From contig JBDRCT010000031.1 of assembly GCA_043821445.1 (NCBI GenBank), positions 35,620-99,619 of the forward strand: a DNA stretch of 64,000 nt, written 5' to 3'. A program made the position numbers and the translations under genes. Under the pieces are notes generated by a model. It made no database searches, was not told the origin of the DNA, and worked only from the letters and a program-made list of their open reading frames with translations. Source of the DNA: Candidatus Omnitrophota bacterium. GTDB taxonomy: Bacteria; Omnitrophota; Omnitrophia; Omnitrophales; Aquincolibacteriaceae. Positions 5,414 through 55,906 of this stretch are shown in pieces (position 1 is the stretch's first letter; each line of letters opens with the position of its first letter).

Positions 5414-6448
5414 GTGAAGATCGAACAGAACAAGTCCCTTAGATCTCTTAACACGTTCGGCATCGATGTGATGGCGAAATATTTCGCGGAGATCCGCTCG
5501 GTCGAAGCATTCAAAGAGCTTCGTAGCGACAGGCGGTTCTCCGGCGAAGAAAAGCTGGTTCTCGGTGGCGGCAGCAATATTCTTTTGACGAAGGATTTCG
5601 ACGGGTGGGTCATCAAAAACGCGATCCCCGGCGGCACGGTCGTAAGCGACACAGGAACGGAGGTAATCCTGAGGGTCGGAGCCGGCGTGGAGTGGAGCGA
5701 TCTGGTATTTGAGTGCATCGAAAAGAATTACGGGGGACTTGAAAATCTTTCTCTCATCCCGGGCCTTGTGGGCGCCGCACCCATTCAGAATATCGGAGCT
5801 TACGGAGCTGAGCTCAAAGACACGTTCCACGAATTGGAAGCGATCGATCTTCGTTTAGGCGTTCCGGTAAAATTCAGCGCCGGAGATTGTGCCTTTGGAT
5901 ACCGGGACAGTGTTTTCAAACATAAATTCCAAGGGCAGTTCCTCATCAGCTCGGTTTCGTTCAGGCTTACGAAGCTTTCTGCGCCTAAAGTTCATTATCG
6001 CTTTCGGACCGAATACGGGGAGGTCCGGAAAACCCTGAGCGAAATGAACGTTCAAGATCTCTCCCTGAAGGCGATGAGTGATGCGATCTGCCGGATACGG
6101 CGCGCCAAACTTCCGGACCCGAAGGAGCTGGGAAATGCCGGGAGTTTTTTCAAGAATCCCGCTGTTTCTCAAGCCCGATTCAAAATGCTCGTTTCCCGGT
6201 ATCCCAAGATGCCGCACTATCCGCAAGAAGACGGGACCGTGAAAGTTCCGGCGGGCTGGCTTGTCGAAGAGTGCGGGTGGAAGGGGAAAAAGGCCGGACG
6301 CGTGGGCTCTCACAAAACTCAAGCGCTCGTGCTTGTGAATTACGGCGGCGCGACCGCTAAGGAGATCCTGGAGTTTTCGGAGGCCATCTTCGGGTCGGTG
6401 AAAAAGAAATTCGGGATCGAGCTCTCCCGTGAAGTGAACGTGGTCTAA
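5414..6448 (+). CDS. murB: UDP-N-acetylenolpyruvoylglucosamine reductase MurB
   Basis: FAD-binding N-terminus (SLRSLNTFGID..., GGGSNILL) and MurB C-terminal domain. GTG start after GGAG. Confidence 0.85.
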   Translation: MKIEQNKSLRSLNTFGIDVMAKYFAEIRSVEAFKELRSDRRFSGEEKLVLGGGSNILLTKDFDGWVIKNAIPGGTVVSDTGTEVILRVGAGVEWSDLVFECIEKNYGGLENLSLIPGLVGAAPIQNIGAYGAELKDTFHELEAIDLRLGVPVKFSAGDCAFGYRDSVFKHKFQGQFLISSVSFRLTKLSAPKVHYRFRTEYGEVRKTLSEMNVQDLSLKAMSDAICRIRRAKLPDPKELGNAGSFFKNPAVSQARFKMLVSRYPKMPHYPQEDGTVKVPAGWLVEECGWKGKKAGRVGSHKTQALVLVNYGGATAKEILEFSEAIFGSVKKKFGIELSREVNVV

Positions 6449-6499
6449 GGGGAGCCCGGGCTTCAACCTGCCCTATAACTCGGAGAGTGGAGGTGAGCG

Positions 6500-6748
6500 G
6501 TGTTTGAGGAAGAAGGGCCGAAGGATTGGGAGGTCCGGGATGAAGAGCCTCCCGAACGGCTTCAAAAGAAATGGGAGCAAGAAGAGGCGAAAGGTCCCCG
6601 GATGACCGTCTGTCCGTCCTGTAAAAAAGAGACGTCTGCGGAGAACCTGACTTGTATTTTCTGCGGCACTGATCTTAATTTTAATGACGAAGGTTGTCCG
6701 ATCCGCTGCTTTTTCACCTGGGTCAAACGTTTATTCAAGAAGGGATGA
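6500..6748 (+). CDS. Small zinc-ribbon protein
   Basis: CPSCKK...CIFCG zinc-ribbon pattern. GTG start. Confidence 0.35.
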   Translation: MFEEEGPKDWEVRDEEPPERLQKKWEQEEAKGPRMTVCPSCKKETSAENLTCIFCGTDLNFNDEGCPIRCFFTWVKRLFKKG

Positions 6749-6834
6749 TATGACGTCCAAACTACCCTTTCGGAAAAGAAATGAAAAGTTTGGGCTGTTA
6801 TGATGCCCCGTTTATTTTTATATGAAGGAGAATC

Positions 6835-7149
6835 ATGAAAAAATGTCCGTTTTGCGCTGAAGAGATCCAGGATGAAGCCATTAAATGCAGGCATTGCGAT
6901 GAATTCCTTGCTGCGCGTCCGGAAGCGCCCAAAACTCCCTGGTACGGCAAAACCGCGGTCTTGATCGTCAGCTTTTTGACCGTGGGACCGTTCGCTTTGC
7001 CGCTCGTGTGGTTCAATCCGACGTATAGCCGCCTCAAAAAGATCATTGTGACCGTGATCGTGCTGACGCTGACCGGCGTTCTTGTTGCGGCGGCCCTCAA
7101 CGCCGTCAAGACGATCTACGGTTATTACAAGCAGGCAGGTGTTTTTTAA
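6835..7149 (+). CDS. Zinc-ribbon membrane protein
   Basis: MKKCPFCAEEI...CRHC zinc ribbon followed by two TM helices. RBS GAAGGAGAA. The same N-terminus is seen at 35238. Confidence 0.55.
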   Translation: MKKCPFCAEEIQDEAIKCRHCDEFLAARPEAPKTPWYGKTAVLIVSFLTVGPFALPLVWFNPTYSRLKKIIVTVIVLTLTGVLVAAALNAVKTIYGYYKQAGVF

Positions 7150-7286
7150 CTTCTTGCAGAGGCAAGGTTTGTGGGACCTATTTTATTGCATATCATGGTT
7201 CGTGTCTGACGAGATTGATGCGGCAGGATTTCCGATTATAATAAGGCGATTTTTCACAATCCCAATCTAAAGAAAGGAAAAAATCC

Positions 7287-7559
7287 ATGCGCAAACTTAT
7301 AATGGCGCTCTTTATTCTTGCCCTTATGCTCGGGGGGCTCTCTGTGACCGCTTATGCCGCGGATTGCGGTAAGGATACTCTGGTCGATCAGGCCGGGGAC
7401 TGGTTCGGGACTCTCGGCAAAAAGGGAATGGAAAAAGATCAGATCTTGGCGAAGCGTAAAGCGGATCGTTTGCTCGTCTGCGCGAAACGGGAGGCCGAAA
7501 AAGCCGCCAAGGAAGTGCAGAAATCCAGCAAAGACATGAAAAAAAGGCTCGGGTTCTAA
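7287..7559 (+). CDS. Small secreted protein
   Basis: Signal peptide ending AYAADCG. RBS AAAGGAAA. Confidence 0.4.
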   Translation: MRKLIMALFILALMLGGLSVTAYAADCGKDTLVDQAGDWFGTLGKKGMEKDQILAKRKADRLLVCAKREAEKAAKEVQKSSKDMKKRLGF

Positions 7560-7719
7560 TACGTAAGCCTTTTTTAGCGTGACATGAGAATGGCCTGATT
7601 CAAAAAATCGGGTCATTTTTTTAAAGTATAGAAATAATCTTTAAGCCATAAAAACAGTGGTATGAGGAAACTTTTCTCTCCGGGGTGCTGTCTAAGGGGT
7701 CGAGGCCTGAGGTGTGAAC

Positions 7720-7805
7720 GATCCTTGTCTTCTGTTTCATTTCTTTGACGGTCGACAAGGATCGCCCCAATTTCATCTTTGATGAAATTGAAAGGAATTG
7801 GGACG
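7720..7805 (+). promoter_or_regulatory. Conserved structured 5' leader motif, copy a (P1 hairpin + GCCCCAATTTCA hairpin + AAAGGxATTGGGAC-ATG)
   Basis: P1 hairpin is GATCCTTGTC-N24-GACAAGGATC. It is followed by GCCCCAATTTCATC-TTTG-GATGAAATTG and AAAGGAATTGGGACG, immediately before the sigma-factor ATG. The same architecture recurs at 10994, 18083 and 55729 with compensatory stem changes. Confidence 0.6.
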
Positions 7806-8369
7806 ATGCAAGAGATTGAGCGGGAACTGATCATCCAAGCGGGGCAAGGAGAAATGAGGGCCTTCCGGGAGATCTATCAAAGGGTCTCCGGATATGTCTA
7901 CACCTTGGCTTATCGCGTCGTGAACACGAAGCATGACGCCGAGGAGGTGACGCAGGACGTGTTCCTCAAGATCCATCGCAGTCTTAGCTCCTTCAAATTT
8001 GAATCGTCCTTCAAGACCTGGCTTTACCGGATCGCGGTGAATACTGCTCTCAATCACGCTAAAAAAAGAAGCCGTGTGACGACACACGAAGTGGAAGAAA
8101 TTTTCGAGGATCCCGCGACCGTGACGCAACCCGATGCCGGGAAGCGTCTGGAAGCCGGAGAAACGGAGCATCGGCTTAAGATCCTTCTCGATCAACTGAA
8201 CCCGGACCAAAGGGCTTGTATCGTTCTCCGGGAGATCGAAGGACTGGATTACCAAGGGATTGCAAGCAGCCTGGGCATCAACATCAACACAGTCCGTTCG
8301 AGGCTCAAAAGAGCCCGTGAGACCTTGATGGCCCTCGGGCAAGAGGAGGTGGCGAGCCATGGAGTGTAA
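7806..8369 (+). CDS. RNA polymerase sigma-70 factor, ECF subfamily
   Basis: Region 2 (DAEEVTQDVFLKIHRSL...WLYRIAVNTALN) and region 4 helix-turn-helix (DYQGIASSLGININTVRSRLKRARE). ATG at 7806 chosen over the upstream in-frame ATG at 7779. Confidence 0.9.
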   Translation: MQEIERELIIQAGQGEMRAFREIYQRVSGYVYTLAYRVVNTKHDAEEVTQDVFLKIHRSLSSFKFESSFKTWLYRIAVNTALNHAKKRSRVTTHEVEEIFEDPATVTQPDAGKRLEAGETEHRLKILLDQLNPDQRACIVLREIEGLDYQGIASSLGININTVRSRLKRARETLMALGQEEVASHGV

Positions 8370-8877
8370 AAAAGTTCAGGAACAGCTCCTGACAGAATAT
8401 GGGGACCAAGAACTAGGTCCGGAAGAAAATGCCGAGGTTGAGCGGCATTTAACCGCGTGCCTGGATTGCCGGGAGTTTTTCGGGGCAGTCCAAAGAAGCG
8501 CCGTGATCCCTTTCAAAGAGGCCGGCGAAATGCAACCGGATAGCGCCCTTTGGCAGAGAATCCAGGAGAAGATCGAGGAGGAACAAGCGCGTTCCCGGAA
8601 TGGATTCTGGAAACTGGCGGACGTCTTAACACCCTTCTTGAGAATGCCGCAACCGATTTTTCGTGCGACATTTGTGACGGCTTTGATCCTGGTGACCGTG
8701 GTGCTCGCGAGATGGCCGGCCAGTTATGCAGATCCTGTCTACGGCTATCTCTCCGAGCAAATGACCTTCATGAGCGGGCTCAAGGCCGGGAATCCGGATT
8801 TCCTGAACGGCGGTTTGAAGGATTACGACGCAGTTTTTGAAGAAATAGACATGTCCCATTCTCCATCAAAAAAATGA
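8359..8877 (+). CDS. Putative zinc-finger (zf-HC2) anti-sigma factor
   Basis: Overlaps the sigma-gene stop. HLTACLDCREF matches the Hx3Cx2C anti-sigma motif. One TM helix. Confidence 0.7.
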   Translation: MECKKVQEQLLTEYGDQELGPEENAEVERHLTACLDCREFFGAVQRSAVIPFKEAGEMQPDSALWQRIQEKIEEEQARSRNGFWKLADVLTPFLRMPQPIFRATFVTALILVTVVLARWPASYADPVYGYLSEQMTFMSGLKAGNPDFLNGGLKDYDAVFEEIDMSHSPSKK

Positions 8878-8996
8878 AAGGTTAATGGGACTAGTCCCGG
8901 CAACCGTTGATAAAAAGAAAATAGAGGCCAGGGCATGTGATGGAACTTTATGTGAACGTGGGTTGTCTTACAAGACAGGAAAGGGAGGGTGTCAAA

Positions 8997-9491
8997 ATGA
9001 AAAACAAACTAGCAAAGATCGTAGCGGTTTTCACGGTGGTGGGGCTGATGTCTGCGGGACCCGTGGCTTATGCTGTGTCCGGGGAGGACGATTCGAAGAG
9101 CCACAAGAGCTCTCATCGGGGGGAAGGCAAAGAGTTCATGAAAGAGCTCAACTTAACCCCGGAACAGAGAGAAAAGTTGCTGGAACAGAGGAATGATCCG
9201 GCCAAACAGGGAAGCTACAAGGCGATACATGAGCAGTTAAAGACAAAAACGCAAGCGCTTTATGCGGCGATTGCCAAGCCGGGCGCGACGCGGGCGGATG
9301 TGAGTGAGCTCATCGATGAGGTGAACGTACTCACAGGGCAGATGTTTTCCCAGAAGATCGATGGCATTTTCGCCATGAAGGAGATCCTTACGCCCGAGCA
9401 GTTCGCGAAGATGCAGGAAAAGCATCAGGTCCGGATGAACAAGGATCATGAAGGTTGGGGGAAAAAGAAACAGGGGTCGGATCAGGGCTAG
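8997..9491 (+). CDS. Periplasmic LTXXQ-motif (Spy/CpxP/ZraP-like) protein, paralog 1
   Basis: Signal peptide. LNLTPEQREKL and ILTPEQFAKMQE LTXXQ motifs. RBS AAGGGAGGG. Confidence 0.7.
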   Translation: MKNKLAKIVAVFTVVGLMSAGPVAYAVSGEDDSKSHKSSHRGEGKEFMKELNLTPEQREKLLEQRNDPAKQGSYKAIHEQLKTKTQALYAAIAKPGATRADVSELIDEVNVLTGQMFSQKIDGIFAMKEILTPEQFAKMQEKHQVRMNKDHEGWGKKKQGSDQG

Positions 9492-9648
9492 GTCGGATTC
9501 CCCGTCTTTTTGACGTCCGGCGTCAGATTTTGCACCAGGCGTCAAAAACATGTTGGATATAATGCTCGCTTTCTATGCGACGCATTTTTTGCTATCATAC
9601 CCGCTTCATAGGGCCATTATCCTCAGGGCAGAGAAGGAGGGTGTTAGA
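9492..9648 (+). promoter_or_regulatory. Repeated intergenic unit (palindromic hairpin + T-runs, TATAAT -10 box, RBS), copy 1
   Basis: TTTTTGACGTCCGGCGTCAGATTTTGCACCAGGCGTCAAAAA inverted repeat, then GGATATAATG and AAGGAGGG. About 85% identical to 10159..10316 and 10878..10990. Confidence 0.5.
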
Positions 9649-10158
9649 ATGAAAGATAAACAAACAGACCTCATAGCAGTTTTGGCGATGGTGGGGGTGA
9701 TGTTGGTGGGGATTGTGGCTTATGCTGTGTCCGGGGGGTACAAGAAAGGCCAAGGGCCCATGGAGGAACTCAACTTGACCCCGGAGCAGAGAGAAAGCAG
9801 AGGGTCTATGGAGGAGCTCAACTTGACCCCGGAGCAGAGAGAAAAGTTGCTGGAGCAGAGGAATGATCCGGTCCAACAGGAAAACCACAAGGCGATGCGC
9901 GAGCAGATGAAAACCAAGATGCAGGCGCTTAATGCGGCGGTCGACAAGCCGGGCACGACGCTAACGGATGTGAGCGGCCTCATCGCTGAGGTGGGCACAC
10001 TCCAGAAGCAGATGTTTTCCAAGAGGATGGAGCGCCTTTTCGCCATGAAGAAGATCCTCACGCCCGAGCAATTCGCGAAGATGCTGGAAATAGAACAGAT
10101 GAACAGGAAATACTACGCAAGTGGGAAAGGAAAGGACCCAGGACCGGGTCAGGACTAG
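9649..10158 (+). CDS. Periplasmic LTXXQ-motif (Spy/CpxP-like) protein, paralog 2
   Basis: Paralog of 8997..9491. Contains an internal 13-aa duplication (MEELNLTPEQRE twice). Confidence 0.7.
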   Translation: MKDKQTDLIAVLAMVGVMLVGIVAYAVSGGYKKGQGPMEELNLTPEQRESRGSMEELNLTPEQREKLLEQRNDPVQQENHKAMREQMKTKMQALNAAVDKPGTTLTDVSGLIAEVGTLQKQMFSKRMERLFAMKKILTPEQFAKMLEIEQMNRKYYASGKGKDPGPGQD

Positions 10159-10316
10159 GTCGGATTTCCCGTCTTTCTGACGCCCGGTGTCAGATTTTGC
10201 GCCGAGCGTCAAAAAAATATTGAATATAATGCCCGCTTTCTATGCGACACATTTTTTGCTACCATATCCGCTTTATAGGGACTTTATCTCCAAGACAGAA
10301 AAGGGAGGGTGTTAAA
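10159..10316 (+). promoter_or_regulatory. Repeated intergenic unit, copy 2
   Basis: Same palindrome (GACGCCCGGTGTCAG...GCGTCAAAAAAA) and TGAATATAATG -10-like box as copy 1. Confidence 0.5.
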
Positions 10317-10877
10317 ATGAAAAACAAACTAGCAAAGATCGTAGCGGTTTTCACGGTGGTGGGGCTGGTGTCTGCGGGGCCTGTGGCTTATGCTGTGTCC
10401 GAGGAGGACAATCTGGAGAGTGGCATGGGCTATAAGCGCCAAGCAGACCAAGGGTCCATGCAAGGGAAGCCTATGCAAGGGGGGCCCATGCAAGGGTTAA
10501 TGGGGCTTGACTTGACCCCGTCGCAGCAAGCAGAGGTTATGGCACTGCAGGATCCAGCCAAACAGAACAAAATCCAGGCGATGGCAGAGCAGGTAAGGAC
10601 AAAGATGCAGATGCTTAATGCGGCGATTGCCGAACCGGGCACGACGCTGACGGATGTGAGCGATCTTATCGAAGAAATAGGCACACTCCAGGCGCAGTCG
10701 CTTTCCCAGAGGATGGAGTACCTTTTCGCCATGAAGAAGATCCTCACGCCCGAGCAGTTCGCGAAGATGCAGGAAATGAAGAAGGAACGGCAGGGACCCG
10801 GAGGTTTTGGGGGACAGAACCCGAGGCCGGATCAGGGAAATTCTGGGGAACAGAACCCGGGGCCGGATCAGTACTAG
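10317..10877 (+). CDS. Periplasmic LTXXQ-motif (Spy/CpxP-like) protein, paralog 3
   Basis: Paralog with a divergent Q/G/P-rich middle. Conserved C-terminal ILTPEQFAKMQE motif. Confidence 0.7.
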   Translation: MKNKLAKIVAVFTVVGLVSAGPVAYAVSEEDNLESGMGYKRQADQGSMQGKPMQGGPMQGLMGLDLTPSQQAEVMALQDPAKQNKIQAMAEQVRTKMQMLNAAIAEPGTTLTDVSDLIEEIGTLQAQSLSQRMEYLFAMKKILTPEQFAKMQEMKKERQGPGGFGGQNPRPDQGNSGEQNPGPDQY

Positions 10878-10990
10878 GTCGGATCTTCCATCTTTTTTAA
10901 CGCCCGGTGACGGACTCGGTGCCGGGCGTCAAAAAAATTCAGATGTAATGCCCGCTTCTCATACAACGCATTTTTTGCTATCATACCCGC
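10878..10990 (+). promoter_or_regulatory. Repeated intergenic unit, copy 3 (not followed by a fourth paralog)
   Basis: Same palindrome and a GATGTAATG box, but followed by the hrcA leader motif instead of another LTXXQ gene. Confidence 0.4.
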
Positions 10991-10993
10991 CCT

Positions 10994-11077
10994 GTCCCAA
11001 CTTTAAATTTCTTTTCATAAAGGATAGTTGGGATTGCCCCAATTTTCACTTCGTAAAAATTGAAAGGTATTGGGACT
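10994..11077 (+). promoter_or_regulatory. Conserved structured 5' leader motif, copy b (upstream of hrcA)
   Basis: P1 hairpin GTCCCAACT-N23-AGTTGGGAT. Then TGCCCCAATTTTCAC...TAAAAATTG hairpin and AAAGGTATTGGGACT immediately before the hrcA ATG. No CIRCE element seen. Confidence 0.6.
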
Positions 11078-11857
11078 ATGGAAACCCTATCCCCAAGACA
11101 GGACGACATCCTCCGGGGTGTCATTGAGACGCATATCGAGACCACTCAGCCGGTGGGTTCCCGTTCGATCGCCGAAAAATATGCTATTTCTTTTTCTCCC
11201 GCGACCATTCGTCATGAGATGGGCGCCTTGGAGGAGATGGGTTATTTGACGCATCCCCATATCTCGTCGGGCCGTTTGCCGACGGATCAGGGTTACCGTT
11301 ATTATCTGGACCATTCTTCATTCGAAGATCATTCCGGCGAGCCCCTGGGCCGTTTGGAGGAAGAGATCGTTCCTTCGGACAGGGAGGACAGGCTCGAGGA
11401 GTTCCTGGACCACGTTTCGCTCCTGCTTTCCTCGCTTTCTCAGGAGATCGGATTGACCCTCATGCCCTTTACGGAAGATCCGGCAGTTGAAAAGCCGGGC
11501 CGCATCAAGCTTTCTTTGCAAGGTTTGTCCTACATGCTCGAAAAACCGGAATTTCAAGATATCCGGAAGATCAGGAATCTGCTGGCCGTTTTTGAGGAAA
11601 AAGTGGCGCTGATGCGATGGGTCCTGACGCACGGGGATCCGCAACATGTATCTGTCTCCGTAGGCCGCGAACATTCGAACGAAGCCTTGGAAGATTGCGC
11701 CATTGTAACGGCCCGCTATACCGCGGGGAAAAACCGCCGGGGGGCCATCGCGATCCTGGGGCCCAAGCGCATGGCGTACCGGCAGATCATTCCTTTGGTC
11801 TCCCGCATGGCTATGACGGTGGGCGATATTCTTGAACACCGGGAGCTTAAGGCGTGA
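11078..11857 (+). CDS. hrcA: Heat-inducible transcription repressor HrcA
   Basis: Winged-helix N-terminus (LSPRQDDILRGVIETHIETTQPVGSRSIAEKY..ATIRHEMGALEEMGYLTHPHISSGRLPTDQGYRYY) and HrcA C-terminal domain. Confidence 0.9.
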   Translation: METLSPRQDDILRGVIETHIETTQPVGSRSIAEKYAISFSPATIRHEMGALEEMGYLTHPHISSGRLPTDQGYRYYLDHSSFEDHSGEPLGRLEEEIVPSDREDRLEEFLDHVSLLLSSLSQEIGLTLMPFTEDPAVEKPGRIKLSLQGLSYMLEKPEFQDIRKIRNLLAVFEEKVALMRWVLTHGDPQHVSVSVGREHSNEALEDCAIVTARYTAGKNRRGAIAILGPKRMAYRQIIPLVSRMAMTVGDILEHRELKA

Positions 11858-17878: not shown

Positions 17879-18082
17879 TCCGCTTTCCCCCCGCCCCATT
17901 TCTCCCAAATTAGAATCATGCAAATTTCGATACCCACTTAGCTCCTATGCTTCGCCGGGTGCGCGTATCCTGGCTGTTGATTCCTATCATTGATAGATAT
18001 TAAACGTTCCTGAGTCGACTCCCGTCAAATTTCTTCCCTCTTTCGATTTTCTTTTCATTCCCTTGGGGTTAGGGTTGTGCCA

Positions 18083-18165
18083 GCCCCAAACTTTTTATTG
18101 TTTTCTAAAAGGGCAGTTTGGGCAGCCCCAATTTCAACAGGGCTGAAATTGAAAGGTATTGGGAC
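18083..18165 (+). promoter_or_regulatory. Conserved structured 5' leader motif, copy c (upstream of an RHH gene and the giant gene)
   Basis: P1 hairpin GCCCCAAACT-N22-AGTTTGGGC. Then AGCCCCAATTTCAAC-agggc-TGAAATTG and AAAGGTATTGGGAC. The RHH ATG lies 35 nt downstream after GGAGGAAG. Confidence 0.6.
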
Positions 18166-18200
18166 AGGGAGAAATAAAAAAAGTTTTGAAGGAGGAAGCC

Positions 18201-18401
18201 ATGCGAAGCGTTCAGGAAGTACCCAAGGCGCCGGCCAAACCCCGGGTCCCGGAGGGCACGTGGATGCAGATCACTTTCACGCTCGATCCCGCGCATTACC
18301 GGAGGCTCTGGCAGCGGGCCGAAGAGGAACACCGGACCCTCCCCGACCTCGTCCGTGAAAGCGTAATCTGTTTTTTGGGAGAAATAAAAATCGTTCCTTG
18401 A
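18201..18401 (+). CDS. Small ribbon-helix-helix-like (CopG/ParD-type) protein
   Basis: 66 aa. ITFTLDPAHYRRLWQRAEEEHRTLPDLVRESV resembles an RHH beta-strand-helix-helix DNA-binding fold. Sits immediately upstream of the giant gene. Confidence 0.45.
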   Translation: MRSVQEVPKAPAKPRVPEGTWMQITFTLDPAHYRRLWQRAEEEHRTLPDLVRESVICFLGEIKIVP

Positions 18402-18438: not shown

Positions 18439-21400
18439 ATGAAGCGTTCATTTTCATTTCCCCTCAGATGGGTTGCGTTTTGCATTGCGATGATCTTTGG
18501 CTGGAATCAGATCGTTTGGGCGGGGGAGATTCTTCCGCGGGATTACATCGTTCCTTCAGAACAGCCTGCCACTACGACGTCTGTTTCTGTCCCAGTCGTG
18601 TCGACAGGAGCGATGCCGGTTCAGATGCTGACGACAACGGATTTTTTAGCGAATAAGCGGGGGCCTTTATCTCCCGCAACTAAAGACACGTCTGAAATCA
18701 TTCCAAAGGCGGTCGCTTCTCCAAATACCGCTCGTTATGAATATGAGCGCTATGATTTTCAAGATACGCTTGATCTTTTGAGGCCTGAATTTGCAAGCGC
18801 TGTGATCGTGAAAGAGATCACGGCTGAGGATTTGAAGAAACTTTCCGAGCTGTCGTTTGAAACCGGCGTGATCGTATTGCATGGCGAAATCGTGCTCTTC
18901 ACCTCAGGGAGTGAAGATGAGATTGGCATGTTGTCCGCCGTTAAGATGCTCGCAGACCAAGCGACTTTTATTTCTCATACGCATCCAAGCATTTATTCTG
19001 CAGGAGGCCCGAGCGGTGGTGATATTAACGAAGCCGTTGCAGCACCGGGCGAGGAGTATGTGATCACGCATACCGGAGTTTATGCGTATAACAATGAAGG
19101 GATTTTGAATAATGGCGATTCCCATGGCTATGACTGGTATCTCGAAAAACTTAAGGAAGCCGTGGGGGCTTCAAAAGCGGAACAAGATCAAATTGAGGCG
19201 AGAAAGGATCTCAATGAATTTGTCACAGCTCAGGATGCGTATAACCGCGCCAAGGAAGATGAACGCGAGACCTTCCGGATGGGCGGCACGCTTTCTTATG
19301 CCTCAGGGCTGAAAACTTCGAACATTACGACTTTGTCCGGGAGCCCTTACCCCTACATAACAACCGGTTCAAGCGCTGGGACTGCACTTTCCTATGCCTC
19401 TTCTACCAGTCAATTTAATTTGAGTTATAACGTACCGGGCGCGAGCGACGTCTCGGGTTTTACAATCTCTTTTGATAATGCAAGCACTCCAACAATGGAG
19501 ACGCAGAACATCAGCATTCTTACCAATCTCGTGTTTGGGCTTAAGGGGCCGGCCACTTCGATCAAACTCGAAATCGTAGATATCAATAATGCAAAAGACA
19601 CATTCACGCTGACCGGCATCTCGAACAAAACAGAACGGTTCTGGCGAGTACCTGTCTCGGCGATCCTCAACACGATCGACAAAACCCGGATCACGCAACT
19701 GAATTTTATCATGACGCAGGCTAACACAACCTCGTCCAGAAGGACCGGCGTAATTTCAATCCGCTCCAAGGGCTTGAAAACGACTGCACCTTCTCAACCG
19801 GCTGTTACCTCAACGGTACCTGCTGCGACGAATCAAACAACCCTTCTGCTGTCGGGAACCAAAGAGGCGAACTCGGCCATTTTCATCAATGGCACACAAG
19901 TAGTAGCTCGTGACACTTCCACGACTTGGACATCTACCGTGAATCTTACAACCGAAGGAAATAATACCTTCAATATAACAGCCAAGAACTCCATCGGACT
20001 GGTAAGCACCGCGAAAACTGTAACAATTCAGCGGGATACGGTTGTCCCGACTGGTTCGATCAATATCAATTCGGGAGCCGCCTACACAGCCTCAGTCGCA
20101 GTGACTTTAGATCTTTCGTCAACTGATTCCGGAAGCGGAATCAGTACGATGAGTTTTTCGATGGATAATGTGACCTGGACCACGCCCGAAACTTATGCGG
20201 ATTCCAAGGCTTTTACGCTTCCAATCGGCGACGGTGATAAAACTGTTTATGTGAAGTACTACGATAAGGCTGGGAACGTCAGCGCCGTTTTTTCAAAGCA
20301 TATTCAATTGAGAGCAACCGGTCCGGTGGTTGTGATTGCGACTGGAACTCCGAGTCTGATCAAGGTAAAGACGCTCACGATCAATTACACGGTGGATGGC
20401 GTTGTGAAAGAAAAGACATTCACGGATCTTGCGGAAGGTGAAAACATGTTAACGATTACGGAACAGGATGAAGCTGGTAATGAAACATCCGTTAACTGGG
20501 CCGTGACTCTAGACACAATTCCCCCTGCGGTGGTGGTGACGAACGCTGTTCCGAGTCTGACGAATCAGGCCGCGCTCGTGGTGGATTACACAGCGGATGG
20601 CGTAGTGAAGCAGAAGACCTTCACACTTGCGGAAGGTGACAATGCAGGACTGACGATCAGGGAAGAAGATGCTGCGGGGAATGTTCGGATGATTACTTTA
20701 TCGAACATCGTGCTGGATACGGTGGCTCCGGTGATCGTGGTGACGAGCGCTGTTCCGAGTCTGACGAATCAGGCCGCGCTCGTGGTGGATTACACGGTGG
20801 ATGGCGTAGTGAAGCAGAAGACCTTCACGCTTGCGGAAGGTGACAATGCCGGCCTGACGATTACAGAAGAAGATACTGCGGGAAATGCTCAAACGATCAC
20901 GTTAGCGAATGTGGTGCTAGATACGGTGGCTCCGGTGATCGTGGTGACGAGCGCTGTTCCGAGCCTGACGAATCAGGCCGCGCTCGTGGTGGATTACACG
21001 GTGGATGGCGTAGTGAAGCAGAAGACCTTCATGCTTGCGGAAGGCGATAACACCGGCCTGACGATCACGGAAGAAGATGCCGCGACAAATTCAAGGACGG
21101 TCACCCTATCCAAGGTAATGCTGGATACAGTCCCCCCCGCGATCATGATCGATCCCGCAACGCCACATCTGATAAGTGTGAATACGTTCACTGTCAGCTA
21201 CACCGTAGATGGTGTGTCAAAACTAAAGACCTTTGCCAGTTTGGTAGAAGGTGAGAATGCGCTCACCGTCACAGAAACCGATCTTGCGGGGAACAGAACG
21301 ACCTTGACCCATAGTGTGACTTATACACCTCTCACGGCCATTGCCTTTCCTGTTCTTGAACTCCGTTCTCCGCAAATCGTTACAACACCCAATTATGAAT

Positions 21401-24400
21401 TAATTTATGCCGTGGACGGAACGGAAAAAAGAGAGACCTACGCTTTACAGGAGGGCGTAAATCTTCTTACGATCGAAGAGTCCAGCGCTGCCGGTAAAGT
21501 AATCGCACATTATCTGGTGGTGCTCAATGTAATTGCCGATCCTGTCTTTCCGGCGAATGAGACCGAACTCATTTTCAACCTGAACGGAACCGACGCCGCG
21601 CTTGTCGATCCAAACTTCGATGCTTCAGGATTGATCCAGGCGGGATGGATCAAATCCAAGGATAGGACTGCTTATCGGCTTTCCGGGGGACTGCTTGCGG
21701 AAGAATTCCGGTCCGATGGTACGCATATTTATTATGATTTCTTAGGACGCATTCATTCAAAAATAGACAAAAACAAAAAGATTACCAGCTATCAGTATAA
21801 GATCAATGCTACAGGCAACTTGTTAAGCGCTCATATTGAAGAAGGAAATAATCGGGTTGATCTGGATAGTAACGGTTTAATCCTCTTCTGGAAAAAAGGG
21901 GACGGAACAGAATTTTTCTTCGATTCCGGTCATTTGACCAAAATCAAAAAGGACGTGGTCGAATACCTCTATCAGCTCCGGCAAGTGGGCAGCGAATGGA
22001 TCTCGGAATCGATCGATCCTCTGCCTTTGGACTCTCCTTATCCTGCGTCGCTTCATTACACATCCGATTCGGTACTTTCCCGAACGGTGATGCCGGACGG
22101 GACCATTTATCAATATGATCTTTCGGGCGCGGTGACGCGCGTGGTGGATCCTGCCGGCAAAGAAACTCTTTATGATCCTGAGAAGGATCTGTTTGGCGCG
22201 TTCCATAGCTTTTCAGTGACCCGTGATGGTATTACAAGAATTTACGGCGAGCAAGGCAAGCTGACTCAATTGAAGGATGCGGACGGGACTGTTTTTACGA
22301 TCGATCAAGATAAGGTCGTAATGATCCAAAAACAGGAGGGCGCCTTATACCGGGACTTGGTTTATGACACGACTGGAACTCTTCAAAATGCCTTGGTGAA
22401 ACTGCCGGACGGAAGAGAACTTCTCATCGTCGGTCAGCAACTCACACAGATCAGGACGGTCGACGGAACGATCCTTGAAATCCAAAATGATAAACCGGCC
22501 AGGTCTTTGACCACAAACGGTCGCGTCTATCAGTACCGTGAGTCGACGGATGCAAACGGCAATCCCATTTTTATCGGTGACTTAACGGAATTTATCAACG
22601 ACAAAGGAAACCACATCTTTGTCGCAAACGGCCGGGTGAGCGGCATGGAAGAAACCCGTGGCAGTGTGTTGATCAAGACAGGATTTGCATACGATAACGC
22701 GGGAAGGATCGTCGAGGCCACGATCGATCAAGACGGTGTCCGGACCGCACGGTTCGTCTATGACTACCAAACTAGCGGAACCATTGTCACGAACAATGTG
22801 GGATCGATTCGTTATTACGACTCGTCCGGGACGCTCATGAAACTGATCACGCTCCGTGGGGAGGAGTACACGTTCAGCCAGATCACAGATCCAAGCGGAG
22901 CCGCCGGGTTCCTTCAAACCTTGATAAAAGTAGTCAACCAACTCGAAGGGACGATCGATTATGAGAACGGAAAACCGGTCCGGATCGTACGGCCGGACTC
23001 GATTGAAATGAAGGATATCGTTCTGAATCCCGACGATTCGCTTCTCAGCGCCGTTTTAATCTATCCCAGCGGGGCGGAAGGTCTTATCGAAGCGGGTGAA
23101 TTGAAACAGATCATCGAAACGGACGGCACGAAGAAAGAATATACGGCCGGTCTTCTTCGGAAGATCACTCGCCCCACTTTTGAAGCAACGAACTTCAGTT
23201 ATGCTTTTGATGTTTCGGGCAATCTCACTTCCGTCATCGTTCAGGACGGTTTAGGCTCCAGGACTTATACGACAGCAGGGATTCTGAGTTCTGCGGTCAA
23301 TCCGAGCGACGATATTTTTACCTATGATGCTTTGGGAAATTTGATCAAGGTCAAAACGAGCGCCAATGAAGAATTCAATTATTCAGGCCAGAATTTATCT
23401 TCCATCAAGTTTTCCACGGGGGAAATGCTGACCGGCATTGTTTTGAATGCGAACGGCAACCTTTCGGGAGGCACGTACGATCCCAAAGACGGTTCAATCT
23501 GGACGATCGCGGGCGGCGCGATAAGTCAGATCCGGGACGCAAGCGGGAATAATCTTTATTATTCAGGAGGGCGTGTCACTCAGATTGTTAAAATGAATGG
23601 CGACCGGATTACCTACAATACCTCCGGCCAGATCACTCAGATCACCTGGGCGGACGGTTCCTGCGCCCGTCAAATTACCACCAATTCTCAGGATGCATTG
23701 GTCAACGCGATCATTTATTCGCCCTCATTTGATAGCGCGGTGTTAAGCACTACGCTTTCCGGGATCGGGTCCATGGAAAGACCGCTGGTGAACGGAGTCC
23801 TTCAAACCCCCGGGTCGCAGGTCAGGACCGCGGGTAAGTTTTTTGACTTCAACGGGCTCTACTGGCGTGAAGTTAATTCGACCGCGTTACACGGAACGAC
23901 TCAGAATTACATCCGGGTCAAAATGACGGGTTCGAATTTCACGGTGAGTTTCTACGCCACGAATTACACGAACTCTCTTTTTAGTCAGCAAACCTATCAG
24001 TCCGCGGCAGGGTCTCCGTATGTCTACATCCCGCTTCCCGATCTTTCCGTAAAATATCTTTACGCGATCGAGATTTCCCCCAAAGGGAATGCCACGGTAG
24101 ATATCACGGACACTCCACTCGTTTTTTCGAGCGGGGACTATCAGCCCGTTGCATGGGTGAATACGGCCACCGCCTTTATAAATCAAAAAATAGTGCCGGG
24201 TTTTCCGGAAAGGATCACTGCGGCATTGTCCCAGAAAACGGCCTTGGAAAGCGCCTCTCAAGATTTTTCCGCTGCCGAAACCTTTAGTACGGTCAAAGTC
24301 AGCGATAGCCAATTCCAAATAGAAAGTCTCAAGAACGCGGTACTGCAAGCGCGACTGTCGCCGGATGCTGTTATCTCGGCCACTTATAACAGAGACACGA

Positions 24401-27400
24401 ACCTTCTTTTTACGGCCCACAGTGATCCTGCTTTTGATCCTGCGGCGGACGCAAACGGAGAATGGAAAAACTCGGTGTCCGGCTGGGAAGAGGATGGATT
24501 TGATTTTGCACCCGTCGTCACCGCGCCTTCCGGGGATGTGCCGCTTAAGATCGAATATGCCTCGAATGGCGGAAGCCAGACGGTGTCTTTTCAAAACGCA
24601 TCTCGGGCCATCTATCAAAACGATCGCATCGAGACCCTTATTACCCCGGAAGGGAAGACGGTTCATTACTCCTATGCCGCTGGGTCCAGTGATGTCGACC
24701 GGGTGATCTTCGACCCCGATCAAATCGACCCAGAAACGACCGAAGTGAAATACGAGTATGGAAAAATACGAGAGATTAGAAAAGCAGGGGCACTTGTCTA
24801 TCTTTACTCCTATGAATTTGACGATTTAGGGGACGAGATCACCGTGATCGAAGATACTGTAGAAAATCAGATCCGCCGGTTTTTGAAAGGAAAACTTATC
24901 TCGATAAGCAATTTAAATAGCGGCTTTAAGACGGTTTATGATTACGACGGCTCAGGCCGGATCGCGAAAGCAGTCACCTCCCGTTCGGGCCGCATCTTCG
25001 GCGCATTCGCTTATGCTTACTCCGGCGACGATACCCTGATCACCGAGGAAGCGACGGGTATTTCAAGGCGTTACGGCGCGGACGGGTTCCTGAAAGAATT
25101 GATCACGGCCAAAGATGAATTTTATAAATATTCCGTTCTTTCGGACGGACAAGCCGAGGACCTTCTGCTTCAGGAGCTCGTGAAGATCGTTACTTCCCGC
25201 GGCACGATCGAGTACAGCAGAGAAAAACCTGTTGAGATCACCGCCGCGGACGGTACCGTGATCAAAAACCTCATCGTCGAATCTTTCGTGGATGAAAATC
25301 ACATGACCCGCATGGTGATCCAACGAGCCGAAGTGCATTTGCCCGCTCCGGACGGAAGGATCGCCTTGATCGAAAAAGGGAAGGTGTTTTATATAAGCTC
25401 TCCGGGCGGAGAGATCCAGGAATTTGAGAATGGATTTTTGGAAAGACTGGTTAATGCCCAGGGTGAGATCACGGACCTCATTTACACGCGGAACGCCTCC
25501 GGGGAGATCGAATCGATCGGTGTAGAGGACAAGAACGGACTGAGGATTTATGACAGGAATGGACAATTGATTCGCGCGGTTCTGCCGGATACCACGCAGA
25601 TCGATTATGACGCGAGCGGCCAGTTGCTCCGGCTCCAGACTCCGGGCGGAGAAATATGGGGATATTCAGCGGGCAGTCTAAGTTCGATGACCTTGGCGGG
25701 GGGTGGCGGAAAAATCGAGCAGATTGTCTTAGATGCGTCAGGAAACGTGCAGTCCTGTGTTTACACTAAAGACGGCATCGTCACCACCATTCAAAACGGC
25801 GCCGTTGCCAGCAAAAAAACGTTGGATGGCACTCTTTTCATCTATGGCTCTTCCGGGAAAGTAGTTGAGATCCTGAAACCGGCGGGCGCGGGTTATGACC
25901 GGCTGATCTATGATGCGAACGGAGTCTTGACTTCCGTTGAACGCGCGGACGGTTCCCGTGCGCGTCAGATCACGGCCGATGCACAGGACACCTTGATCAA
26001 CGCGATCATTTACTCGCCCTTATTTGACGGTGCCGTGTTAAACGCAACGCTTCCCGGAATCGGGTCCAAGGAAAGACCTCTGGTGAACGGGGTCCTTCAA
26101 ACTCCCGGGTCGCAGGTCGGGACCGCCAACGAATTTTTTGACTTCAACGGGCTTTACTGGCGCAGTGTTAATTCAACCTCGTTGCACGGCGCGAATCAAA
26201 ATTATCTCCGGATCAAGATGATGGGTTCGAATTTTACGGTGAGTTTCTACTCCACCAATTACACGAACTCCCTCTTCAGTCAGCAAACTTATCAGTTTGT
26301 GGTCGAATCTCCGTATGTCTACATCCCGCTTTCCGATCTTTCCGTAAAATATCTTTATGCGATCGAGATTTCCCCCAAAGGGAATGTCGCGATGGATATC
26401 ACGGATACTCCGCTTGTTTTTTCGAGTGGGGATATGCCCGCTATGGATTGGACGGGGATCGCGAGCGGTTTTACGGATCAAAAAGACAGACCCGCAGTGC
26501 CGTCGATCATTAACGAGACTCTTTTTAAAAAAGCAGCTTTTGAGACCCAGGCCGCGGATCAATTCTTACTTCGGTCGCCGGACCAGCTTGATGAAGGCCA
26601 AGCTCAGACGTTCTACGATTCTGCTCTCGGCATCGTGAAGGGCGCGTTGCTTGAACCCGAAACGATCATTGCGGCGGCTTACCGGGCCTCTGACAGCACA
26701 CTCTTGATGGCTGCCCGTGCCAATAACACCGTGGCGCACTACGTCAACGGGCAGATCGACTATGTCACGGATCTGGACGGGAATTTGCTTATCGACCACG
26801 AGTATGACGCCGCTGGGGACCTGGTCGCGGTTCATCTCATGGATGCGAAGAAAAAATTAGAGGAGCAGATCATCGCTGCTCAGACGGAGGTCTCACGTCA
26901 GGAAACTGAGGCGCTGATGGCGCTTGCCGTTGAGCGCGGGCACGCGATCGAGGCGATCCAAAACAAATTGAATGAGGGCCTGGCTGCGATCAATGCCGAG
27001 CGGGAAAGGATCCGGCAGCTCAGTTCTCAGCGGGTCTGCCGCACAGTCCTGTTCTTTAAATCTTGCGAGAACGTTCAAGTCGATGTGAGCGCACCCCTTT
27101 CGGAACTCGATCAGATGGAGAAGGACCTTCGCGAAGAAACGGCCGTGGCGCTTGCCGGACTTGATGCCGTTGTGGCCCAGAAGAAAACAGAGATAGAAAC
27201 GGATGCCAAGGCGGCGTTTGTCGAATTAGAGAAGCAGCAGCTCACCACCTACCGCGAGATCCTGAAACAGGAATTAAGACCCGTTCTTTTCCATCACTAC
27301 CGGAAGATTCTCGGAAGAGATCCGTCCGAAGGCGAGATCGATACGTGGCTTAAGCGCGAGATCGGAGACGACCATGTGAGCCTCCTCTCATTTAAAGAGG

Positions 27401-50305: not shown

Positions 50306-50466
50306 CACCGCATAGTATTTTAAATGAGGGGTATGCGGTACAGCGCTTGATTTTCATTAATAAAAAATGATCAGAAATCAGTGCAGTCCAAGTCACCATT
50401 CATGAAAAGAAATAAAGACTTGGGCAGTACTTTTAACCCTTAAAATGAAATGGAGAAAAGTACTCG

Positions 50467-55728: not shown

Positions 55729-55813
55729 GTCCCAACCACCTTTGAGTTTTTACAAGGTTGGGACAAGGGCGGCCCCAATTTCAACGAGTTGAAATTGATA
55801 GGTATTGGGACCG
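55729..55813 (+). promoter_or_regulatory. Conserved structured 5' leader motif, copy d
   Basis: P1 hairpin GTCCCAACC-N18-GGTTGGGAC. Then GGCCCCAATTTCAAC-GA-GTTGAAATTG (perfect 10-bp stem) and ATAGGTATTGGGACC. Followed by a 23-codon uORF (55821..55892) and then the rlmH ORF. Confidence 0.6.
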
Positions 55814-55906
55814 AACGCGATGAGAAGAAAAATTATTGAAGAAACGGCTAAAAAGTTGATACTAGCACTGCGTTACCATTCATTTAAATGAGGAGCGTCC
55901 CATTTT

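Follow-up and report, generated by a model that had tools for sequence, protein, structure and literature searches.

A putative extracytoplasmic stress module with an amplified Spy/CpxP-like gene, and a dispersed leader repeat, next to hrcA in Candidatus Omnitrophota

Genes of the locus and their products

We examined a 64-kb stretch of DNA from a Candidatus Omnitrophota bacterium (contig JBDRCT010000031.1; referred to as the window), in which a sigma factor gene of the extracytoplasmic function (ECF) type is followed by a gene for a predicted anti-sigma factor, by three tandem genes of the LTXXQ (Spy/CpxP-like) superfamily, and by hrcA, all on the forward strand. The sigma gene (7806–8369) encodes 187 amino acids (aa) and overlaps the anti-sigma gene (8359–8877, 172 aa) by 11 nt. 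The LTXXQ genes lie at 8997–9491 (paralog 1, 164 aa), 9649–10158 (paralog 2, 169 aa), and 10317–10877 (paralog 3, 186 aa), and hrcA, the first gene of hrcA-grpE-dnaJ, at 11078–11857. In a homology search, the anti-sigma factor and the three paralogs were 100% identical to NCBI proteins of a Candidatus Omnitrophota metagenome-assembled genome (MAG), for which the NCBI annotation already calls paralogs 2 and 3 'Spy/CpxP family protein refolding chaperone'. The match to the anti-sigma factor covered its full length, although a look-up of its exact sequence in another index had returned no gene. An earlier reading of the stretch, made from its letters and referred to here as the sequence-only reading, had described an ECF sigma/zinc anti-sigma pair followed by a tandemly amplified Spy-like gene. 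Pfam and TIGR02937 domain matches confirmed the pair, and multi-copy arrays in independently assembled relatives confirmed the amplification.

Related loci were retrieved via homologs of the anti-sigma factor (57–83% identity). They shared the gene order murB ... sigma – anti-sigma – LTXXQ – hrcA – grpE – dnaJ – 4HBT – gpsA. The LTXXQ gene occurred once in locus L004 and once in each of the more distant relatives (L041, L042, L043, L044, and the P0075 locus), three times in the window and in L037/L038/L039 (three independent assemblies of one locus), and four times in L040. The amplification is genuine and lineage-specific, with a copy number that varies. The assignment of hrcA was supported by this synteny and by a match to TIGR00331 (216 bits against a cutoff of 197), which fell in two stretches; the protein is short (259 aa vs ~340 typical), and the hrcA-grpE-dnaJ operon has no dnaK.

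The sigma factor matched PF04542 (Sigma70_r2; 63.9 bits, 1e-17) and PF08281 (Sigma70_r4_2; 60.9 bits, 9e-17), and possesses the sigma2 and sigma4 domains only. It scored 109.3 bits with TIGR02937 (cutoff 42.9), and every specific equivalog model stayed below its cutoff. The gene product is an ECF (group 4) member of the sigma-70 family. Its nearest solved structures were AlgU (6in7, 2e-27) and Escherichia coli sigmaE (1or7, 4e-23). The anti-sigma protein matched zf-HC2 (PF13490, 33.2 bits against a cutoff of 22.2); its zinc motif H30-x3-C34-x2-C37, together with C3, was conserved in all 8 orthologs, and a hydrophobic segment was judged by eye at about residues 100–118. The N-terminal zinc motif and the zf-HC2 match place this predicted single-pass protein among the ZAS-type class I anti-sigma factors. 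That it is the partner of the sigma factor is predicted from the 11-nt gene overlap and the conserved pairing of the two genes.

When the paralogs were compared with Pfam, paralog 1 scored 29.6 bits with PF13801 (cutoff 29.2) and 19.3 bits, below the cutoff, with PF07813. Paralog 2 exceeded both cutoffs (36.7 bits with PF07813, 33.6 bits with PF13801), and paralog 3 scored 28.5 and 40.0 bits, respectively. By the gathering score of one family or the other, all three belong to the LTXXQ superfamily. The proteins encoded by the extra copies were 53–57% identical to paralog 1. Each protein carries two LTPEQ motifs, in agreement with the two LTXXQ motifs noted earlier, the first of them reading LTPSQ in paralog 3. 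An internal tandem duplication in paralog 2 (9753–9844) brings its number of LTPEQ motifs to three; it had been put at 13 aa and measures 48 nt, or 16 aa. Paralog 3 contains the insert that had been called Q/G/P-rich, which is Q/G/P/M-rich and built of 15-nt repeats (10456–10496), and also a 36-nt C-terminal duplication (10802–10873). Strong GGAGG-type ribosome-binding sites, likewise noted before, precede the paralogs. The N-terminus of the LTXXQ proteins, MKNKLAKIVAVFTVVGLMSAGPVAYA/VS, shows on inspection by eye the n-, h-, and AXA c-regions of a putative Sec signal peptide.

Paralogs 1 and 3 were modelled as monomers by AlphaFold2, using a 56-sequence alignment of the family. The helical core, a long bent hairpin, was obtained with a predicted local distance difference test (pLDDT) score of 87–98. 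In a Foldseek search of the PDB, the top 24 matches were all ZraP, CnrX, CpxP, or STV, and Spy chains ranked 26–28. The family profile matched Spy (3o39) at 9.4e-8 and CpxP at 3.7e-5, and Q57 and LTPEQ were invariant across the 56 family members. The models support a helical hairpin of the CpxP/Spy/ZraP type, which is the fold that the sequence-only reading had expected of structure prediction.

Repeat units, promoters and origin of the extra copies

Comparison of the three units at the nucleotide level yielded three repeat families: D1 (298 nt, 81% and 63% identity across units), D2 (174 nt, 83% and 61%), and D3 (111 nt, 77% and 95%). The three tandem units that had been described are thus real, with a similarity far above chance. 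A part of that description has to be amended: unit 1 is homologous to the others from about 8971 on, and its upstream part (8878–8970) shares no homology with the intergenic regions of units 2–4 and bears an ECF-type promoter. In a four-way alignment, the intergenic segment turned up a fourth time, at 10878–10990.

ECF-type promoters were searched for with the pattern RRAACYW-N15–17-GTCYWA on both strands of 771,604 nt of sequence, including the window and the related loci. There were 16 matches, and all 16 fell at one of two positions. In the window, both on the forward strand, these are P1 (GAAACTT-N16-GTCTAA, 7667–7695), upstream of the sigma operon, and P2 (GGAACTT-N16-GTCTTA, 8942–8970), 26 nt 5' of the paralog 1 ATG. 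The motif GGAACTT-N16-GTCT(A/T)A was present 5' of the sigma gene in 8/8 genomes and 26 nt 5' of the first LTXXQ start codon, again in 8/8; the P2 of L004 falls within the 3' extension of its anti-sigma gene. Nowhere in the 771,604 nt did such a motif precede paralog 2, 3, or 4 or hrcA, and an ECF promoter driving paralogs 2 and 3 directly was rejected for this reason. AlgU and sigmaE promoters are of the GGAACTT/TCTGA type. Because P1 and P2 are conserved and the sigma factor is nearest to AlgU and sigmaE, whose promoters are of this type, we infer that it autoregulates its own operon from P1 and drives paralog 1 from P2. The earlier proposal of a dedicated ECF stress response is strengthened by these promoters. 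The accompanying idea that every copy has one and the same kind of palindrome-containing promoter did not hold, paralog 1 having the ECF promoter and paralogs 2 and 3 a captured hrcA promoter. It may be noted that a 90-aa open reading frame (ORF; 7287–7559, forward strand) with a signal-peptide-like N-terminus is conserved just 5' of the sigma promoter in most of the related loci; it matched no Pfam family, and behind it, at about 7590–7620, lies a hairpin that resembles a terminator.

The native hrcA promoter (TTCTCA-17-TATCAT with a TG 5' of the –10, 10956–10984) is conserved in all 8 genomes. Its extended –10, TGCTATCAT, recurs upstream of paralogs 2 and 3 (9590–9598 and 10257–10265, compared with 10976–10984 at hrcA), about 30 nt 3' of a TATAAT box. 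This box (9558/10226) had been named as the –10 element; it reads GGAATG, GCAATA, or GTGATG in relatives and was rejected as a promoter element for lack of conservation, the conserved element being TGCTATCAT. An ungapped alignment matches the upstream regions of paralogs 2 and 3 to a composite made of the hrcA promoter (hairpin, T-run, and TGCTATCAT), the first 24 nt of the hrcA coding sequence, and then the 5' untranslated region (UTR) of paralog 1 from CAAGACAG onward. Ahead of paralog 2, a bulged, terminator-like hairpin with a T-run (9562–9598) overlaps the first captured promoter (TTTTTTGCTATCAT), and a remnant of hrcA codons 1–8 (9608–9631), in which ATG has become ATA, ends at a CAAGACAG-type junction; the remnant was recognized by alignment to the leaderless hrcA starts of L040 and L041. 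Ahead of paralog 3, the second captured promoter (10252–10265) has its –10 mutated to TACCAT and is followed by a second remnant of codons 1–8 (10275–10298; repeat family D8) with the junction CCAAGACAG. In L040, the remnant ATGGGAACCTTATCCCTAAGACAG is identical to hrcA (ATGGAAACCCTATCCCCAAGACAG) at 21 of 24 bases. The –10 element and the Shine-Dalgarno (SD) sequence are kept in most of the extra copies.

The junction sequence CAAGACAG(G) is a microhomology of 9–10 nt that occurs both in the 5'UTR of paralog 1, just 3' of the P2 –10, and in hrcA codons 6–8. As read from these junctions, the upstream regions show paralogs 2 and 3 to descend from one unequal recombination in the ancestor shared by the lineages of the window, L037, and L040. 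Unequal exchange at CAAGACAG(G) duplicated the LTXXQ gene together with its terminators or post-stop hairpins, the hrcA promoter, and hrcA codons 1–8. Because the duplicated block carried the hrcA promoter, the extra copies stand behind a sigma-70-type, extended –10 promoter and lack the ECF promoter; they are probably not under direct control of the ECF sigma factor. The sequence-only reading had taken the fourth intergenic copy for one without a gene. The copy is there, and it precedes hrcA, because the native hrcA promoter is the original of the captured ones. A CIRCE operator (controlling inverted repeat of chaperone expression; TTAGCACTC-N9-GAGTGCTAA) was sought in the 64-kb window with up to three mismatches, and no match was obtained.

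A palindrome consisting of a T-run, a hairpin, and an A-run follows the stop codons of the three paralogs (9507–9548, 10174–10215, and 10893–10935, forward strand). Compensatory changes among the window, L037, L040, and L004 indicate that it is real and conserved. No other site in the 64-kb window has its two arms as a pair. It had been regarded as terminator-like in both directions. On either strand, however, the T-run lies 5' and the A-run 3', and the two runs paired with each other in 10/10 folded copies; a terminator scan gave no match at the palindrome. In view of this tract orientation, which leaves no 3' U-tract, and of the blank scan, a bidirectional intrinsic terminator was rejected. 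Single-copy relatives possess two strong canonical terminators that separate the LTXXQ gene from hrcA. Of these, the first has turned into the T-run/hairpin/A-run palindrome in the multi-copy lineage, and the second is weakened there. Because of these alterations, read-through from P2 into the extra copies is possible.

A dispersed two-hairpin leader repeat

The sigma operon and hrcA share a leader element, first apparent as a 53-nt repeat (D7) before the two starts. The complete element is about 84 nt long, with two hairpins, a core GCCCCAATTT-N11-AAATTGAAAGGNATTGGGAC, and inverted termini GTCCCAA...TTGGGAC. As the 5'UTR of the sigma operon it occupies 7713–7807 and ends directly at the ATG (88 bits with the covariance model R1); as the hrcA 5'UTR it occupies 10986–11079 (100.8 bits), the insert proper being about 10998–11077. 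A degenerate copy on the reverse strand (8850–8942; 25.2 bits, E 2.6e-4) overlaps the 3' end of the anti-sigma gene. Further copies lie at 18075–18168 and 55730–55814 on the forward strand and at 50335–50433 and 6697–6803 on the reverse strand, so that the window holds 7 distinct sites at E < 0.001. R1 gave 60 matches in 365 kb of related loci, and a degenerate-pattern scan of species-representative genomes gave 36 loci, 33 of them in Omnitrophota MAGs, with several per genome; the repeat is specific to one clade within Omnitrophota. Rfam returned nothing relevant for the whole window at gathering thresholds, or for 7550–11150 at E up to 5, and a search of the literature for such a repeat or leader in Omnitrophota brought up no description.

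When 29 copies were aligned, 90.6% of the cells paired, compared with 21–44% in slid controls, and compensatory changes were seen at 13 of 19 pairs. Folding of single sequences gave z-scores from –0.06 to –4.25, and it was the comparative analysis that proved decisive. Most intact copies start 5–10 nt past a –10-like hexamer, end directly at an ATG, and provide a GAAAGG SD sequence. A start codon followed the repeat in 26 of 37 copies with GAAAGG vs 3 of 23 without (Fisher p = 1.6e-5, with orthologous copies counted separately). The genes behind the repeat are unrelated housekeeping genes and include those for Mfd, UvrB, LpxA, RF2, MetH, PlsC, and PtsI, as identified from N-terminal sequences.

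The presence of the repeat varied at orthologous sites. At hrcA, it was found in the window, L042, and L044 but not in L040 or L041. In the latter two the promoter adjoins the ATG, the hrcA –10 (TATCAT) lying just 9 nt from it (L040, 8300–8330; L041, 6180–6210). This suggests that the hrcA mRNA is leaderless, or nearly so, in the relatives devoid of the repeat, and insertion of the repeat seems to have taken place precisely between the hrcA promoter and the start codon. At the sigma gene, the repeat was full in the window and L004, reduced to its core in L037, L041, and L043, and missing from L040, L042, and L044, with distances from the –10 to the ATG of 110, 74–75, and 26–27 nt, respectively. 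At the anti-sigma 3' end, relatives lacking the copy have an anti-sigma factor of 165 aa followed by a gap of 56 nt, vs 119 nt in the window; the copy gives the protein a 7-aa C-terminal extension in the window and in L040. Degenerate copies were also seen in relatives at the sigma/anti-sigma junction (L043, 4901–4993; L004, 3470–3632) and at the sigma 3' ends of L041 and L037, some lengthening the sigma ORF in frame by about 13–28 aa and others separating the two genes.

The repeat is multi-copy, has terminal inverted repeats, and is present or absent at orthologous sites, as is characteristic of miniature transposable elements with inverted repeats (MITEs). A possible target duplication of 1–2 nt ('T' or 'CT') at the hrcA site could not be distinguished from chance. 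No transposase was identified for the repeat, no search for one having been made. We read the leader repeat as a MITE-like element that may serve as a complete, SD-bearing 5'UTR. It resembles MITEs, repetitive extragenic palindromes and bacterial interspersed mosaic elements (REP-BIME), and Correia elements in being short and multi-copy, in its inverted termini, hairpin modules, and presence/absence pattern, and in occurring also in frame within genes. It differs from them in that most intact copies fill exactly the interval between the predicted start of transcription and the ATG, supplying the GAAAGG sequence. An origin of the core from a CRISPR repeat was considered, as the core ends in ATTGAAAG like some type I-B/III repeats. 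This was left unsupported by a metagenome array scan with spacers of 26–46 nt, which returned one unrelated protein-coding repeat.

Modular in its make-up, the repeat can also occur as tandem arrays (L005, 6673–6850; L008, L016, L024, and L028; L043, 6200–6420; L044, 6180–6384). A second core type, CCCAATCTCAGCTTTGCTTCGATTGA(AA/TT)GGAATTGGGAC, and copies with hairpin 1 only occur as well. One copy in the window lies, together with a 66-aa ORF devoid of a Pfam match (18201–18401), upstream of a giant ORF of 4309 aa (18439–31368, forward strand), in which RHS repeats and a Big_13 (bacterial Ig-like) domain were recognized. A preprint reports giant genes in Omnitrophota (bioRxiv 10.1101/2023.11.21.568195).

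Proposed function and comparison with known systems

We consider it fairly probable that the locus is an RpoE-like extracytoplasmic stress module, with paralog 1 driven by the ECF sigma factor and the extra copies by hrcA-type promoters. The steps concerning hold and release by the anti-sigma factor and initiation by the sigma factor are drawn from what is known of these families. The co-translated, zinc-binding, single-pass anti-sigma factor would hold the sigma factor at the inner membrane until an envelope signal inactivates it. The released sigma factor would initiate at P1, for autoregulation of the sigma/anti-sigma operon, and at P2, for paralog 1. Paralog 1, a presumably Sec-exported helical hairpin of the CpxP/Spy family, would most likely serve as a periplasmic holdase that needs no ATP, as an adaptor for feedback on the anti-sigma factor, or as both. 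The output would be dual, with one ECF-induced copy and two copies expressed from hrcA-type promoters, plus any read-through past the weakened terminators.

Several points weigh against this assignment. The chief uncertainty in the control of paralogs 2 and 3 is possible read-through from P2. Since promoter copy 2 is mutated in its –10 and the promoter of one L040 copy has been lost, some of the extra copies may need such read-through and would then be under ECF control. Paralog 1 lies barely over its Pfam cutoff, and the E-values from Foldseek are poor (0.03), which is common with simple helical hairpins. The ratios of nonsynonymous to synonymous substitution (dN/dS) between paralogs, 0.64–1.22, fit relaxed constraint equally well as diversification. 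Finally, promoter use, inactivation of the anti-sigma factor, and chaperone activity enter the proposal as deductions.

The type of module has been described before. In the context of group ECF281, position +1 holds a zinc-finger anti-sigma factor and position +2 a protein of PF13801, 'heavy-metal resistance' (Casas-Pastor et al. 2021, Nucleic Acids Research; PMC7826278). As judged by this published context, the present locus has the same two neighbours, kept in 8 related loci; it differs in that the +2 gene is present in three copies in the window, the extra ones under a different promoter. In Phocaeicola vulgatus, where the system was examined by experiment, the ECF sigma/anti-sigma pair CirY/CirZ is accompanied by a co-transcribed, single-copy spy, the most strongly induced member of the regulon (PMC13114119, 2026). 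Both loci have a Spy-like gene directly downstream of the ECF pair, but P. vulgatus belongs to another phylum, and the Omnitrophota gene has its own ECF promoter, forms a tandem array, and adjoins hrcA. The amplification and the promoter capture are a lineage-specific elaboration of this known arrangement.

The E. coli sigmaE-RseA and Pseudomonas aeruginosa AlgU-MucA systems provide the nearest solved sigma factors and the promoter type GGAACTT-N16-(G)TCTnA. In contrast to RseA and MucA, the Omnitrophota anti-sigma factor belongs to the ZAS-type zf-HC2 proteins and has a short tail in the periplasm, and the locus contains neither RseB/MucB nor a DegS gene. The spy and cpxP genes of E. coli are controlled through the Bae and Cpx two-component systems and not through sigmaE. 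The paralogs themselves resemble Spy, CpxP, ZraP, and CnrX in their two LTXXQ motifs and long helical hairpin and, as judged by eye, in a putative signal peptide. They differ in their low identity (~15–24%), in having no conserved metal ligands, and in their long low-complexity N- and C-terminal tails, and their fold is predicted from monomer models.

It is possible, if somewhat doubtful, that paralog 1 is mainly a regulator, which binds the ~50-aa periplasmic tail of the anti-sigma factor and is titrated off by misfolded proteins, the extra paralogs shifting the range of sensing. The strict retention of the sigma/anti-sigma/LTXXQ order and of the dedicated ECF promoter in 8/8 genomes is in keeping with such a role, the fold fits CpxP and CnrX as well as Spy, and CnrYXH and Cpx offer precedents (CnrX acting on CnrY and CpxP on CpxA). 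Against this, binding of the anti-sigma factor by paralog 1 is argued from analogy, and the spy of the CirYZ system is treated as regulon output (PMC13114119). A regulatory role is also compatible with a chaperone role.

We regard it as unlikely that the locus is a heavy-metal stress module, in which ZraP/CnrX-like LTXXQ proteins would bind or sense metals in the periplasm, the ECF pair would react to Zn, Ni, Co, or Cu, and the amplified Met-rich copies would help to buffer Cu(I)/Ag(I). The top Pfam match of paralogs 1 and 3 is indeed PF13801, 'Heavy-metal resistance', and for ECF281 and ECF290, in whose contexts a PF13801 protein occupies +2, a relation to metal stress has been proposed (PMC7826278). 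ZraP and CnrX are, moreover, among the top structural matches, and the extra paralogs contain 7–10% Met. However, no column of His, Cys, or Met was invariant or nearly so across the 56 family members, and conserved metal-ligand residues of the CnrX/ZraP type were thus missing from the family; this speaks against a metal site of that type and for a role like that of Spy/CpxP. Nor was the N-terminal stretch of paralog 1 that contains His conserved in its orthologs, and the related loci had no adjacent efflux or metal-transport genes.

The copies have diverged at different rates, paralog 1 being the ancestral and conserved one. In the tree, the paralog-1 copies of the 8 genomes cluster as orthologs with 57–73% identity (42% to the divergent L004 copy), and the extra copies form one fast-evolving clade, in which paralog 2 of the window groups with copy 3 of L040, and paralog 3 with copy 4. 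The dN/dS was 0.18–0.40 among paralog-1 orthologs and 0.54–0.57 among orthologous extra copies. The extra copies have lost His, gained Met and Gln, and acquired low-complexity insertions and tails, while retaining the LTPEQ core; the paralog-1 orthologs retain 2–6 His. Segments rich in Met and Gln (PMQG repeats; MQMQMMQGMG) lie at 10440–10500 in the window and in copies 2 (6284–6823) and 3 (7040–7606) of L040. The region of the ribosome-binding site and signal peptide, including the first 90 nt of the genes, is 96–100% identical between paralogs 1 and 3 (8967–9086 vs 10287–10406), compared with ~63% for the remainder, and we ascribe this to recent gene conversion within the array.

That the extra copies are neutral by-products of a recombination hot spot, drifting to pseudogenes, appears quite improbable. 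Their raised dN/dS (0.54–1.22 over all comparisons involving them), the low-complexity insertions and internal duplications, the range of 1 to 4 copies across close relatives, and the mutation of one promoter copy and loss of another would all suit such drift. Yet every extra ORF is intact in three lineages at a dS of ~0.6, the putative signal peptide, both LTPEQ motifs, the SD sequence, and the –10 are retained, the helical core is modelled with high confidence, and the dN/dS of orthologous extra copies is below 1. That the triplication is an assembly artefact, to which tandem repeats in a MAG are prone, can be dismissed as next to impossible, because synteny with 1–4 copies recurs in independently assembled relatives (the three-copy layout was recovered separately from one ENA and two JGI samples, and the four-copy array from yet another sample) and the copies diverge by 17–39% in nucleotides; the collapsed artefact that the sequence-only reading had held in reserve is thereby set aside.

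More tentatively, and as a possibility to which we lean less than to the stress module itself, the two sets of observations may be read jointly. The duplication would have moved a Spy/CpxP-like chaperone from an ECF promoter to the hrcA-grpE-dnaJ promoter, coupling periplasmic and cytoplasmic proteostasis, and the mobile 84-nt cassette shared by the sigma operon and hrcA would represent an undescribed class of translation-initiation leader. The cassette would form the entire 5'UTR of at least 20 unrelated housekeeping genes (mfd, uvrB, lpxA, prfB, metH, plsC, and ptsI among them). It appears to turn leaderless genes into SD-led ones and may impose a common post-transcriptional control.

The locus adds an Omnitrophota example to the widespread, barely studied arrangement of an ECF sigma factor, a ZAS-type anti-sigma factor, and a Spy/CpxP-like protein. 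Its promoter motif, GGAACTT-N16-GTCTAA, is clean and conserved, and the predicted regulon consists of just two promoters. The duplication offers a worked example of promoter capture, by which paralogs acquire different regulation in one step. The leader cassette may matter more than the module, as it bears on translation initiation in uncultured, small-genome bacteria and on how annotation pipelines handle it.

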